Below are positions 7,873-60,925 of a stretch of 64,000 bases of DNA, piece by piece. Numbering within the stretch: position 1 is the stretch's first letter; each line of letters opens with the position of its first letter. Source of the stretch: Bacteroides fragilis (GTDB taxonomy: Bacteria; Pseudomonadota; Alphaproteobacteria; Rs-D84); contig CAVGNU010000003.1 in assembly GCA_963630775.1 (NCBI GenBank), forward strand, positions 19,190-83,189. The letters run 5' to 3'. The notes beneath the pieces are model-generated. The model ran no database searches. It saw nothing but the letters and a program-made list of their open reading frames with translations, and was not told the origin of the DNA. Made by a program: the position numbers and the translations under genes.

Positions 7873-8397
7873 TCACTTTGTATAGTAACAATTCTTGTTA
7901 TAAAACTGATACGTATGGCCTGAACTGTCTGTCATTTTTGTATTTGCAGGGATAAAGCAATCCGTTATGGACGATTTGTTGTAACCTGATGTTGTGCCAT
8001 TCACACCATCCAATGCCGGACACCGCGTACATCCGGTGGATACATTACCGTAATATCCAACCGCACACAGGCATGACGTTTTATCATTACTTGTTACCAT
8101 ACCATGTAAATCATTACACGACACGACATAGCACCCTGTTGGTTCACCCACCGCATGATAACTGCTGTCACAACATGGCGACATTTTATATGCAGCGCCA
8201 GACCCCGCCACAGAACATGACGTCGTTCCACCATTGGTAAAATTGCCACAATATATCTGGCCATTAATGGTGACGTAATACCCATAACAACGTGTACATA
8301 AACTGCCCGTGGTGCATGACACACCGGATGCACCCCCGCAAATTCCGGCGATTACAACACCGACAACCATGACACATGCTGTACGATTCCATTTCAT
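7873..8397 (-). CDS. Secreted cysteine-rich protein (family member 1)
   Basis: 174 aa with an N-terminal hydrophobic signal-like segment (MKWNRTACVMVVGVVIAG). About one residue in ten is Cys. The C-terminal module CAVGYYGNVSTGCTRCPALDGVNGTTSGYNKSSITDCFIPANTKMTDSSGHTYQFYNKNCYYTK is alignable with the protein encoded at 39497..39787. Confidence 0.7.
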   Translation of the reverse strand: MKWNRTACVMVVGVVIAGICGGASGVSCTTGSLCTRCYGYYVTINGQIYCGNFTNGGTTSCSVAGSGAAYKMSPCCDSSYHAVGEPTGCYVVSCNDLHGMVTSNDKTSCLCAVGYYGNVSTGCTRCPALDGVNGTTSGYNKSSITDCFIPANTKMTDSSGHTYQFYNKNCYYTK

Positions 8398-8687
8398 TTT
8401 CCCACTCCTTTATTGGGTTAAAAAAAAATACCGCCAAAGAATTGGCGGTCGGGGATTTGAAAAATCATAAGCAAAAATGACCCCGTGACTTTTGAACAAA
8501 ATATGTCCTTATCATCACAGACCCCCGACCGGAATACACACAGTCGGGTTAACAAAACACGGCGCGTAAAACACACCGATGTTTGTTCGGATTTACAACG
8601 CAAGAATGCGCCGTTTTGCTTACAGGATTTTCAAGTCCCAGAGCCAACATCCCTGTTGATTCAGGCAACAGTGTAGAAAATTAATAA
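8398..8687 (-). promoter_or_regulatory. Long structured 5' leader with terminator/antiterminator-like alternative pairings (leader L1)
   Basis: Read on the minus strand: CCCGAC (8548-8543), GGTCGGGGG (8530-8522), CCCCGACC (8454-8447), then CCGCC-AATTCTTT-GGCGG (8448-8431) followed by TA plus T9 (8428-8420), then AAGGAG and the ATG. Possible sigma70 promoter TTGTTT-17 nt-TACACT overlaps the tatA terminator tail. Confidence 0.5.
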
Positions 8688-39467: not shown

Positions 39468-39500
39468 GAACAGCGCGCCAATGGCGCGCCGATTCTTTAT
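39468..39500. terminator. Hairpin terminator between convergent J-domain gene and the Cys-rich operon
   Basis: GCGCGCC-AAT-GGCGCGC followed by CGATTCTTTATTTT. Confidence 0.6.
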
Positions 39501-39787
39501 TTTGAATAACAACATTTACTCTGTATCACTTGTACACCTGAACCGGTGGTGTCTTGGTAATCAAATTCCGTTCCTGCGGCAAAACAACACGATGTTATGT
39601 CGCCGGTATTTTTATCTGGCGTTGTTGGATACACACCCCCAGACGACGGACACTGGTAACAATTTGAACCACTCAGATAGTATCCTGCCTCGCACGAATA
39701 AGATGTTGTTGTCGTGCATGCCGCATGCGCAACATTCACAATAAATATAACAAATAATGCAGTAATAATTTTTTTCATATTTCTCAC
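39497..39787 (-). CDS. Secreted cysteine-rich protein (family member 3)
   Basis: 96 aa with signal peptide MRNMKKIITALFVIFIVNVAHA. The mature part, CEAGYYLSGSNCYQCPSSGGVYPTTPDKNTGDITSCCFAAGTEFDYQDTTGSGVQVIQSKCCYSK, aligns with the C-terminal module of the 7873..8397 protein. Confidence 0.65.
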   Translation of the reverse strand: MRNMKKIITALFVIFIVNVAHAACTTTTSYSCEAGYYLSGSNCYQCPSSGGVYPTTPDKNTGDITSCCFAAGTEFDYQDTTGSGVQVIQSKCCYSK

Positions 39788-39793
39788 TCTCGA

Positions 39794-40195
39794 TTACAAT
39801 TGATTACACGCCTCACAAGTACCTACCACTTTCCCGGATGCGACACTGCAACATGTACTACACGTGTTCGCATCACACAACCTGGCACAGTACCAATGTT
39901 CCTCGTCTGTGGTGCTGCACGAACCATACATTGCTGTTACATATCTGTGATTGGTGGTATCGTGGGTTGTGCCGGACGTACGTGTGCACGTACCGGAGTT
40001 ATTCGTCCACCCTGATGGACAACTGGCCTCTACCACAGAATAACACGCCCCCAACGAACAGTTTTGTGCGCAAAGAGACAATGATGCATAATACGGATCG
40101 AGCAGCGAAAAATCAGGATTTAATTTTGACGCATCTACCGCAAATGCGCACGGCATCATGACCAGTATCAGCGGAATTGCAAACAGTTTCTTCAT
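39794..40195 (-). CDS. Secreted cysteine-rich protein (family member 2)
   Basis: I prefer the Met at 40195 (MKKLFAIPLILVMMPCAFA signal peptide), preceded by AAGGGGG. 133 aa, about 10% Cys, with CxxC/CC pairs (CSTCC, CEAC). It lies 6 nt upstream of the next Cys-rich gene. Confidence 0.65.
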   Translation of the reverse strand: MKKLFAIPLILVMMPCAFAVDASKLNPDFSLLDPYYASLSLCAQNCSLGACYSVVEASCPSGWTNNSGTCTRTSGTTHDTTNHRYVTAMYGSCSTTDEEHWYCARLCDANTCSTCCSVASGKVVGTCEACNQL

Positions 40196-40330
40196 TTCAC
40201 ACCCCCTTATGTGTTTTGCAAACAAAAAACCACCGAAATAATTCAGGTGGTTGGAGGTTCGAAACAATTATCAAGAATTGTGGGCCTATTCAATATATTC
40301 AGCCACCCTCCAACCGCATGGTTGGGGGTG
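40196..40330 (-). promoter_or_regulatory. Conserved leader module L2 (alternative-pairing element plus hairpin/U-tract before the RBS)
   Basis: Minus strand: CCCCCAACC (40328-40320) atgc GGTTGGAGG (40315-40307), 49 nt, CCTCCAACC (40257-40249) overlapping AACCACC-loop-GGTGGTT (40252-40228), then TTTTTT, AAGGGGG and ATG. Near-identical to 60552-60690. Confidence 0.55.
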
Positions 40331-40338
40331 ACGGCATT

Positions 40339-40378
40339 GAAAAAACGAAACATCGCAAGGATATAAATCCATGCGATG
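40339..40378 (-). terminator. Intrinsic-terminator-like hairpin about 10 nt upstream of leader module L2
   Basis: Minus strand reads CATCGCATGGA-TTTATA-TCCTTGCGATG-TTTCGTTTTTTC. Confidence 0.5.
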
Positions 40379-40529
40379 CCGAAATCTCTACCGTCTGCAT
40401 TTTATGACGCGTAATGCGTTCATCTTGATAAAGGGTTTCGACACCCCGCCAATGGAACACCCATCGGCAATGGAATAATAAAATAAAAAAACACTATACA
40501 CAAGAGAAAAAAATATTTTGACCAAATTT

Positions 40530-48450: not shown

Positions 48451-48718
48451 TTAGAGAGCAAAGCGCAGAGAGCAGAGAGCAATGAATGTGTCCGCCAATG
48501 GCGGACAATTTTTATTTTCTGGATTGCTTCACTGCGTTTGCAATGAAACCGAGCGGTACGCGAAGGTTGCGGCAAGGACGTAAGTCCGCAGGCGACACAT
48601 GCACAAAACAACGTCATTGCGAGCGAGCGAGCGCAAGCGACGCGCGGCAATCCAGTTTATTTTATGTTGCGCGCAGCGCACAAACATTGCTCTCTGCTCT
48701 CTGCGCTTTGCTCTCTAA
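48451..48718. mobile_element. Nested palindromic MITE-like element with perfect 34-bp terminal inverted repeats
   Basis: Left TIR TTAGAGAGCAAAGCGCAGAGAGCAGAGAGCAATG (48451-48484) is the exact reverse complement of 48685-48718. Inside are the terminator hairpin GTCCGCC-AAT-GGCGGAC-AATTTTT (48490-48516) and a second inverted pair CTGGATTGC (48519-27) / GCAATCCAG (48647-55), with GCAATGA / TCATTGC nested within. No transposase. Confidence 0.7.
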
Positions 48719-59888: not shown

Positions 59889-60551
59889 TTAAAATGTATG
59901 TCTCAATCCAAAATCAATGCTATATGCACCCTGCAGGTCAAAATCATCATCTGCATTCAAACCGATAAAGTTCAAACTCACATTCCAACCAAGTCCTTCA
60001 ACGGCGGTTTCGCCATTCAGGCCAAACTTTAATACCCCCGCGGCACCATTATCAGACATTGTTTCTTTGCCATATCCGTAAACCTTTACAGATTCATTTA
60101 CCCATGCATGACCCAAGCCGAATGAAAAAACAAAATCTAAACGCCGCCCTTCATTACCAGACAAACGAATATAATTATCGTATGTAAAATACAATGTTGT
60201 TAAATCTATTTTGCCATCCATGTTGACTCTATAAAAATTCCCATAGGAATCTTCCAAAATAAAATTTGGACCAGCGGTTAAATGACCTACCTGGGGCATA
60301 TACGATAATGTTGCACTGACACCACCATTATAAACACTGCTGTGTTCACCAAAACGCAGTCCGAATACCCCAGACCACGTTATGGTGACACCATCAGATT
60401 TTAATATATCGTCATCAATGGAATCTTCCACATCATCTGAAAATACTGGCCCAGCAAAACCAACTTTCATCCCCAGAAACAATTTTGTTTCTGCCATTGC
60501 TGGCATGGCCAAAATAGACAGCAACCCCGTTGTTAAAAATAATTTTCTCAT
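59889..60551 (-). CDS. Small outer-membrane beta-barrel protein
   Basis: I prefer the Met at 60551 (MRKLFLTTGLLSILAMPAMA signal peptide). Beta-strand periodicity and a C-terminal ..GLRHTF. Confidence 0.7.
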   Translation of the reverse strand: MRKLFLTTGLLSILAMPAMAETKLFLGMKVGFAGPVFSDDVEDSIDDDILKSDGVTITWSGVFGLRFGEHSSVYNGGVSATLSYMPQVGHLTAGPNFILEDSYGNFYRVNMDGKIDLTTLYFTYDNYIRLSGNEGRRLDFVFSFGLGHAWVNESVKVYGYGKETMSDNGAAGVLKFGLNGETAVEGLGWNVSLNFIGLNADDDFDLQGAYSIDFGLRHTF

Positions 60552-60690
60552 TTCACACCTCTGTTTATGTTCTGTTAAACAAAAACCACAATGGAATACC
60601 AAAGTGGTTGGAGGTTGAATACTATTATTTACGGAATAGTGTCGCTTATTCTAATATATCGCGACCCTCCAACCATCAAGGATTGGAGGT
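60552..60690 (-). promoter_or_regulatory. Conserved leader module L3 (same module as 40196-40330)
   Basis: Minus strand: CCTCCAATCC (60689-60680) ttgat GGTTGGAGG (60674-60666), 51 nt, CCTCCAACC (60614-60606) overlapping CCAC-loop-GTGG (60607-60586), then TTTTT, AGAGG and ATG. A TATAAT on the minus strand at 60765-60760 could be the promoter. Confidence 0.55.
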
Positions 60691-60805
60691 ATTTTTTGTC
60701 CCCACGGACACGTAAATAGAGGGTATTCACACCCTGCACCATTTCTGTGGTACACGTTGATTATATTCTATGGCACATTCAAATTCCAGATAAAATTTAC
60801 GCTGA

Positions 60806-60925
60806 TTTCAAAAACAAAAACCGCCCAGCGGGCGGTCTAAATATAAAGTAAACTGTTCATTGTGCCGACTGCGCGGGTTTAATGCGGCGTAAAAATAAAC
60901 CGCCCAGCGGGCGGTCTAAATTAAA
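60806..60925 (-). terminator. Two tandem copies of the same terminator hairpin (79-nt period) downstream of the acyl-CoA ligase gene
   Basis: CCGCCCAGCGGGCGG occurs at 60821-60835 and 60900-60914 inside a roughly 30-nt direct repeat (AAACCGCCCAGCGGGCGGTCTAAAT.TAAAG). On the minus strand each copy reads CCGCCC-GCT-GGGCGG followed by a T-rich run. Confidence 0.65.

Follow-up and report, generated by a model that had tools for sequence, protein, structure and literature searches.

The locus studied here lies on the minus strand of contig CAVGNU010000003.1 (assembly GCA_963630775.1), within a stretch of 64,000 nucleotides (nt) that was analysed as a whole and is called the window below. An outer membrane protein (OMP)-like gene of 220 aa (59889-60551) is found there behind an acyl-CoA synthetase gene, and between the two is a structured element, hereafter the leader or the 60k copy, which recurs in the window and in related genomes. 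The sequence-only reading of the window had delimited it as a module at 60552-60690 repeating one at 40196-40330 (the 40k copy). That interval is real, but the unit is larger: the interval corresponds to its 3′ two-thirds, and the unit as a whole extends from a -10 box (60765-60760) to a terminator-like hairpin (60609-60577) and includes a 5′ domain of three hairpins (Pa, Pb and P0), two pseudoknots (PK1 and PK2) and an exchange of pairing partners among three segments, A, B and C.

All features of the 60k copy are on the minus strand. Their order from 5′ to 3′ is -10 box, Pa, Pb, a linker, P0, an A-rich stretch, A, a short loop and B in the first half, and P2, one purine, P3, J3/1, C, D with the U-tract, about 27 nt and the start codon in the second. 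From the sequence TATAAT of the -10 box, which keeps a fixed distance family-wide, transcription would start at about 60755-60753. Pa, the 5′-terminal hairpin (60736-60753, GUACCA / UGGUGC), forms a 7-bp helix in the anchored alignment. Pb (60720-60735, stem 91% paired) contains in its loop U60731, which pairs with A60640, and the PK1a strand UGAAUAC (60729-60723). The Pb-P0 linker contains PK2a, UAUUUACG (60711-60718), whose partner is the P3 loop at 60633-60626. P0 (60697-60710, UGUCC GUGG GGACA) shows two-sided changes in all five pairs and is followed by the A-rich linker (60696-60690). Segment A, CCUCCAAUC (60681-60689), pairs with B in the ‘off’ helix of the predicted fold; B, GGUUGGAGG (60666-60674), is the shared strand, with either A or C as partner. 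P2 (60641-60665, GUCGC / GCGAC) was identified by covariation and by its conserved loop GAUAUAUUAGAAUAA, and P3 (60623-60639) holds PK2b as its loop CGUAAAUA (60633-60626). PK1b, GUAUUCA (60616-60622), makes up J3/1 and is the partner of the Pb loop at 60729-60723. Segment C, CCUCCAACC (60606-60614), forms P1 with B. The 3′ part of C doubles as the 5′ strand of the terminator-like hairpin (AACCAC...GUGGUU, 60609-60604 with 60589-60584; U-tract 60585-60577). The Shine-Dalgarno context AGGUGUGAA with the ATG (60551-60549) occupies 60549-60560.

The window holds precisely two matches to the core pattern GGTTGGAGG-N-CCTCCAACC, at 40249-40315 and at 60606-60674 (minus strand), and 100 shuffles held none; the 300-nt regions around the two copies aligned with 76% column identity, in agreement with the recurrence claimed earlier. 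Both modules (60690-60552 and 40330-40196) lie on the minus strand with a start codon shortly downstream, and the RNAs of the two copies fold more stably than shuffled sequences (z = -4.7 and -3.7). Two covariance models were used, R1 for the core and R2 for the full-length leader; R2 matched the 60k copy at 60757-60581 with 134 bits and the 40k copy at 40469-40225 with 113 bits (112.6). P2, P3 and both pseudoknots differ between the two copies by compensatory changes, so that the copies do not stem from a recent segmental duplication, which bears out the view that the module is not part of a duplicated gene. The sequence-only reading had counted two copies in the window; a third, divergent one was found at about 8671-8421 on the minus strand (the 8k copy; R1 24.9 bits, E = 0.003; R2 16.3 bits), and its subtype is also present at 15169-15390 in locus L241. 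The leader thus occurs three times in the 64-kb window, and it occurs twice in a related 20-kb locus. Both pseudoknots are present in all three window copies, each with a different sequence. In scans of the window for further copies, an exact triple-repeat search found the 60k copy alone, and a search for interrupted long-range complementarity returned the three known copies and noise. The latter search also listed an inverted repeat at 48451-48718, whose arms, one of 19 nt (AAGCGCAGAGAGCAGAGAG) and one of 14 nt, are separated by about 250 nt.

In the 40k copy (40225-40480, minus strand, defined by sequence, pseudoknots and the R2 match) a -10-like TATTAT (40480-40475) is followed by Pa (40468-40448), PK1a UCGAAAC (40441-40435), PK2a UUAUCAAGA (40431-40423), an insertion of about 95 nt that replaces P0, segments A (about 40330-40322), B (40315-40307) and C (40257-40249) and a terminator ending at 40224. 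The gene behind it, with its ATG at 40195, encodes a 133-aa Cys-rich protein. Two adjoining genes for Cys-rich secreted proteins (133 aa and 96 aa) lie at 39497-40195 on the minus strand and are probably one operon. The 8k copy (8421-8671, minus strand, from the R1 and R2 matches) consists of Pa (8671-8653), PK1a UUGAAAA (8634-8628), PK2a UAAGCAAAA (8622-8614), A CCCGAC (about 8546-8541), B GGUCGGGGG (8530-8522), C UCCCCGACC (8456-8447) and D GGCGGU (8435-8430) with a run of nine U, and precedes a gene for a 174-aa Cys-rich secreted protein (7873-8397, ATG at 8397).

The family was sampled with an exact-pattern scan, GGTTGGAGGG-N35-65-CCTCCAACCAC, on one genome per species (GTDB). The scan matched at least 119 loci, one of them a chance match in Streptomyces, and placed the core in at least 118 loci of at least 87 gut alphaproteobacterial assemblies, Candidatus (Ca.) Enterousia and relatives. 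The hosts listed are Ca. Enterousia, ‘Rickettsiales’ and ‘Alphaproteobacteria bacterium’ metagenome-assembled genomes (MAGs) of human, ruminant, horse, chicken and termite origin. Several assemblies carry multiple copies, with at least five exact matches in JAFUTJ01. Enterousia belongs to the order Rs-D84, in which most genomes are smaller than 1 Mb; Ca. Enterousia and its relatives are uncultured (PMC12306168). The sequences of B and C were preset by the scan pattern in most family copies, and because of this A/B/C variants beyond the pattern were sought with the covariance model; a metagenome scan for the variant GGUCAGGAGG...CCUCCUGACC added 16 further members. Loci L093 and L099 (CAZJGX01) carry the motif on contigs of 2.2 and 2.6 kb binned in a MAG labelled Muribaculaceae, probably a binning error, since all other hosts among the matches listed are alphaproteobacterial. 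Among 2.9 million viral contigs (IMG/VR) the motif was found on one and on no other, and a phage origin was rejected on this ground; the sole carrier (L245, IMGVR_UViG_3300024303_004416) has a full-length copy at 8440-8613 that scored 137 bits with R2. Two tandem minimal copies, 174 nt apart and lacking the 5′ domain and A, precede one gene in L049 (2770-3093), and a second tandem copy in L028 (1137-1202) has neither A nor a terminator.

Homologues of the OMP-like gene were found with 47-92% identity. The order of AMP-binding enzyme, leader, OMP-like gene and MnmE is conserved at L241 (55% protein identity) and at L243 and L244 (59%), where the orthologous leaders reached R1 scores of 65-70 bits and R2 scores of 132-133 bits and showed compensatory changes in Pa, P2 and PK2. 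The gene had been read as a beta-barrel OMP, which is plausible in view of PF13505 (OMP_b-brl) in 2 of 34 homologues and is weakly supported, as the protein itself had no match in the Pfam scan; it has a signal-peptide-like start and a C-terminal Phe. The ribosome-binding site context GGTGTGAAATGA, taken earlier as a component of the module, is indeed identical at 40192-40203 and 60548-60559, but it is not conserved in the other copies listed, and its inclusion in the module is not supported. This 12-mer, presumably a strong extended Shine-Dalgarno context, recurs in L243, with its 59%-identical orthologue, and not in L241, with the 55%-identical one.

A -10 hexamer matching at least five of six positions was present in 90 of 101 family copies (exact TATAAT in 33 of these 90), and its distance to PK1a peaked sharply at 33 nt, compared with such a hexamer in 29 of 92 unpositioned control windows. 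These data support a sigma-70-type promoter belonging to the leader itself. The sequence-only reading had proposed the minus-strand TATAAT at 60765-60760 as promoter, together with two terminators of the preceding gene and a 5′ untranslated region (UTR) of roughly 200 nt; two terminator-like hairpins were located behind the acyl-CoA synthetase gene (60918-60896 and 60838-60818), and the 5′ UTR length follows from the family-wide position of the -10 box.

A same-strand open reading frame (ORF) with a Shine-Dalgarno sequence lay behind 113 of 120 copies. The median distance to the start codon was 49 nt from C (interquartile range (IQR) 45-54) and 27 nt from the U-run (IQR 24-31). The latter gap leaves no space for a second promoter, and transcription of the gene would therefore come only from read-through. 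In 103 of 120 copies segment D was found with a U-run within 40 nt, the arrangement of an intrinsic terminator (a G+C-containing hairpin directly before a U-tract), which the window copies show as well. The placement is neither random with respect to gene starts nor confined to two copies of one segmental duplication.

The downstream proteins are mutually unrelated, and most of the 84 covered by a Pfam scan had no Pfam family; the remaining families were XRE-type helix-turn-helix, two DNA methylases, an ABC exporter, PAP2 and EamA. Small XRE-like genes stand behind about 11 copies. At least 5% Cys was counted in 31 of 90 downstream proteins, and one protein matched an ephrin-receptor-like Cys-rich repeat weakly (PF07699, E = 2e-4). 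The portability of the module and its regulatory action at the RNA level, both proposed earlier, are supported. Its description as an export cassette is not: a signal-peptide-like start was seen in 64 of 119 downstream proteins, the others including XRE-type regulators, DNA methylases and an ABC transporter, and the signal peptide is a property of the genes and not of the module.

To assess the secondary structure, all helices were pooled in a 58-sequence alignment and compared with 500 shuffles, with slid partner columns as control. None of the 500 shuffles reached the observed covariation, and pairing was 85% in place and 39-47% after the partner columns had been slid. RNAalifold on plain MAFFT alignments recovered P1 alone; P2, P3 and the pseudoknots were recovered only with anchored alignments and covariance models. 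In the anchored alignment Pa was 87-97% paired and had the strongest mutual information after PK1, and compensatory changes in Pa were seen in the orthologue L241. P2 and P3 co-vary or show mutual information in the core alignment, and covariation bears out all three helices of the junction, P1, P2 and P3. The P2 loop has the family consensus GAAUA-UAUU-GAAUAAG, with an additional hairpin inside the loop of some copies. G-U pairs far outnumbered A-C pairs, in the helices (128 vs 10) as in A:B (53 vs 5), and R1 scored 43-92 bits on the gene strand and at most 30 bits on the antisense strand of identical sites. A conserved, co-varying structured domain thus lies in the 5′ UTR, as expected of a riboswitch.

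In PK1, seven Pb-loop nucleotides pair with a 7-mer that ends one nucleotide before C. Of 117 copies, 103 have a perfect Watson-Crick complement (7 of 7) at a distance of 45-65 nt on the upstream side of B, where 0.5 were expected from permuted partners; 37 different 7-mers are in use, and 94.8% of the positions are paired. The Pb loop additionally contributes a pyrimidine whose partner is the single purine separating P2 from P3; this pair is C-G in 24 copies and U-A in another 24. In PK2, which joins the linker after Pb to the P3 loop, at least six contiguous Watson-Crick pairs were found in 93 of 98 copies (median 8), and permuted controls gave at least seven pairs in just about 2 of 98. The idea that distinct pseudoknots within a genome serve as an address code against cross-talk was rejected, as identical PK1 7-mers occurred within an assembly in 9 of 48 pairs (2.9 expected).

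Segments A and C share one sequence, B is complementary to both, and C is at the same time the 5′ strand of the hairpin before the U-tract. The A:B and B:C pairings cannot coexist. A:B was 95% paired in the 58 sequences, and the segments were found to change together. In L082 and L094 the set is CUCCUGA (A), GGUCAGGAGG (B) and CCUCCUGACC (C), in L083 it is CUCCUGUC / GGCAGGAGU / ACUCCUGCC, L098 has a compensated G-to-U change, and the 8k copy combines its own set of A, B and C with a D changed to GGCGGU. Among the 16 variant members from metagenomes A matched B exactly in 15, and in all 16 when wobble pairs were allowed. Changes at the 3′ end of C are matched by changes in D (GACCGC with GCGG), in these metagenome members too, and standard and variant A/B/C sets are present together in one assembly, JAISAB01. 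As A, B and C change together, both pairings of B are under selection. In a two-state comparison that leaves the pseudoknots out, the mean energies were nearly equal (A:B with terminator -28.7 kcal/mol, B:C -28.2 kcal/mol, standard deviation of the difference 4.3), and the window copies favoured A:B with terminator by 5.2 kcal/mol (60k) and 10.3 kcal/mol (40k). The element therefore includes, as riboswitches do, an expression platform that excludes part of the sensor, with C common to P1 and the terminator and D co-varying with C. In the predicted A:B state of the 60k and 40k copies the CCUCC of C is single-stranded, and the stretch from J3/1 to C, with this CCUCC, pairs with the Shine-Dalgarno region in predicted folds of both. 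A pairing of the A-rich linker with the U-tract or D in the ‘on’ state was considered and dropped, as inspection showed no consistent complementarity when D varies.

From these data the element is probably a cis-acting mRNA 5′ leader of about 175 nt that works as a two-state transcription switch before the start codon. Its logic is that of a four-segment attenuator, with A:B and C:D in one state and B:C in the other. When B is held by A, C would be free for D, the terminator would form and the gene would be off. When B pairs with C, the three-way junction would be closed and the 5′ strand of the terminator removed, so that RNA polymerase could read through and the gene would be on. The 5′ domain would clamp the junction, with the Pb loop on J3/1 and the Pb-P0 linker on the P3 loop, and bring C beside B. 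Because it ties down both J3/1 and L3, and J3/1 ends one nucleotide from C, the pseudoknotted fold would raise the local concentration of C at B and favour read-through. A putative effector (a small molecule, a protein, an ion or temperature) acting on the invariant P2 loop could help the fold to form and so control the switch. The data show the helices, the exclusive pairings of B, the strand, the placement before genes and the conserved -10 box; we infer the conditional termination, the direction of the switch and the kind of effector. In read-through RNAs that keep A:B, the free CCUCC of C may mask the Shine-Dalgarno sequence, a possible second lock at the level of translation.

Several observations weigh against this interpretation. 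Termination, read-through and the transcription start are predictions from sequence alone. At 6-7 bp the stems of the terminators are short, their loops measure 8-14 nt, and a terminator scanner did not call them in the window. The pseudoknots fit both states, and that they favour C over A is our inference. The covariation of B and C comes from about 25 variant copies, as the search pattern had fixed both segments elsewhere. The switch is not universal in the family, with A missing in L049 and both A and the terminator missing in L028, and no common pathway that would point to a ligand, as for a riboswitch, was found among the 84 downstream proteins.

The window was compared with Rfam 15, and no family was found at its gathering score. 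At E <= 10 the single relevant match was sRNA-Xcc1 (RF02221), below threshold: against a gathering score of 53, the 40k copy reached 37.6 bits and the 60k copy had no match at E <= 10, and on 14 further loci with at least one copy each a single site was matched (36.8 bits). The window element is not a member of sRNA-Xcc1 by the Rfam criterion. In the model alignment the two nevertheless share a 9-bp G-rich P1 closing a three-way junction, P2 stacked on P1 with an AAUA-containing loop, and P3 followed by a short J3/1 and then CCACC with a U-run; the minimal forms (L049 and the second copy of L028) are the most similar to sRNA-Xcc1. This family was described as an 88-nt RNA with mapped ends and its 5′ end at P1 (PMC2996969). 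It is known upstream of and co-oriented with symE in integron cassettes of Xanthomonas (10.1101/2025.06.18.660453), upstream of a gene for an ORF6N-domain protein in phage APSE (10.1101/2020.03.17.996009) and in several copies per genome in Xylella (PMC12189769). Unlike sRNA-Xcc1, the leader has two pseudoknots, segment A as a competing strand and about 100 nt of additional, co-varying 5′ domain that pairs with the core. Its conserved -10 box is accordingly found some 100 nt ahead of P1. Its hosts are gut Alphaproteobacteria, whereas sRNA-Xcc1 is mostly found on beta- and gammaproteobacterial mobile elements. We place the two in one architectural class, and they are possibly distant relatives.

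Like the transcriptional ‘ON’ riboswitches (such as the adenine riboswitch of pbuE), the leader has a P1 3′ strand common to the terminator stem, so that stabilising P1 would block termination, as well as conserved junction and loop nucleotides and co-varying stems. It differs from them in lacking a coherent metabolic regulon, being multi-copy before mostly orphan secreted proteins, and in having the extra anti-P1 strand A and a 5′ domain with pseudoknots to J3/1 and L3. In the immunity system of phage P4, seqB of the CI RNA is complementary to the upstream seqA and the downstream seqC, and pairing is coupled to premature termination. The leader likewise has one segment complementary to two similar ones on the same transcript; it shows no sequence or structural similarity to the P4 system, in which a processed RNA acts in trans. 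The C4 and isrK families of Rfam did not match the motif. A literature search with the core sequences, of incomplete coverage, returned unrelated primers and similar strings and no description of the motif, papers on ‘Enterousia’ had no mention of such an RNA, and a search of the RNA-motif literature gave no relevant result. The leader family is apparently undescribed.

A stand-alone small RNA gene of about 175 nt that acts in trans, for instance through an exposed CCUCC anti-Shine-Dalgarno sequence, with leaky read-through into the downstream gene, would account for the element having its own -10 box and its own terminator. It would also fit the single-stranded CCUCC of C in the predicted A:B state and the nearest Rfam family, sRNA-Xcc1, having been detected as an 88-nt small RNA with mapped ends (PMC2996969). 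This explanation is unlikely in view of the tight spacing to the start codon (IQR 45-54 nt), always on the same strand, of the lack of promoter space that makes the downstream genes depend on read-through, and of the CCUCC itself, which is dispensable when A, B and C change jointly (CCCGAC in the 8k copy). A role as small RNA and a role as cis-acting leader are compatible and do not exclude each other. More doubtful is a constitutive structural leader without switching, in which the 5′ UTR would serve to stabilise or process the mRNA or would cleave itself as a ribozyme, with A:B as a folding intermediate. The large double-pseudoknotted fold, its occurrence in several copies per genome before unrelated genes and the absence of a ligand-related gene set among the downstream proteins agree with it, and self-cleaving ribozymes also occur in multiple copies before unrelated genes. 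The overlap of C with the terminator stem, with D co-varying with C, the complementarity of A to B kept through changes in B, and the balanced energies of the two states would be purposeless without switching and therefore weigh against such a leader; nor did any Rfam ribozyme family match.

Only a slight chance is given to a leader-peptide attenuator of the trp type, in which a ribosome on a short ORF across A would free B for C. The four-segment logic is identical (1:2 and 3:4 as terminator against 2:3 as antiterminator), with exclusive helices between the promoter and the first gene, and in the 60k copy an ATG at 60743 opens a frame of 37 codons across A and B. That frame is shifted in the orthologue L241, and no short ORF or leader peptide is conserved. 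The region upstream of A consists of hairpins with two-sided changes, insertions and deletions, among them the insertion of about 95 nt in the 40k copy. Segments 1 and 3 are identical in the leader, unlike those of trp-type attenuators, so that either strand builds the same helix, and the sensor is presumed to be a large pseudoknotted domain instead of a translating ribosome. A repeat acting at the DNA level would be either a miniature inverted-repeat transposable element (MITE) or repetitive extragenic palindrome (REP), or a palindromic operator for an XRE-type repressor; CCTCCAACC-N4-6-GGTTGGAGG is a near-perfect palindrome, and about 11 copies precede small XRE-like genes. The excess of G-U over A-C pairs and the strand-specific model scores make this very unlikely, to the point of being negligible. 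The helices vary in sequence and yet stay complementary, with 37 PK1 7-mers in use, JAISAB01 holds both standard and variant A/B/C sets, and an orientation fixed relative to the gene is not expected of MITE or REP repeats.

On the minus strand of the window another repeated hairpin, distinct from the leader, was noticed at about 61000-60925, 40790-40710 and 40690-40610, immediately 3′ of the genes upstream, those for acyl-CoA synthetase and thioredoxin reductase. Its stem is variable and co-varies, its loop (CTCATGTA-N-TRTACAC) is conserved, and the element also includes a tail, CATCTGCACC. It is found in L004, L027, L040 and L243 as well, and no Rfam family matched it at gathering score. Tandem repetition was also seen for a unit of about 80 nt that carries the terminator AGACCGCCCGCTGGGCGGTTT, with two units in the window (60818-60918, minus strand) and about three in the orthologous locus L243 (9560-9740).

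If the leader terminates transcription conditionally, it would rank as a principal regulatory device of Ca. Enterousia and relatives, and its regulon would consist of Cys-rich secreted proteins and outer-membrane proteins, mostly orphans, those likeliest to meet the host or a partner cell. We tentatively suggest, at somewhat less than even confidence, that it represents a new class of large, double-pseudoknotted RNA, a ‘strand-swap’ switch by which a single signal, cellular or derived from the host, governs much of the secreted and surface proteome in the sub-megabase genomes of gut Alphaproteobacteria (Rs-D84, Ca. Enterousia), and that the sRNA-Xcc1 elements are its minimal relatives, mis-filed as trans-acting. 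The switch would add an orphan riboswitch or attenuator class with a complex fold, in which two identical strands compete for one partner, and sRNA-Xcc1 elements would be worth re-examining as cis-acting leaders. For annotation, the leader would serve as a marker of promoters, terminators and correct start codons in over 80 assemblies, and the switch, if confirmed, would offer a handle on the signal sensed by Ca. Enterousia and relatives.

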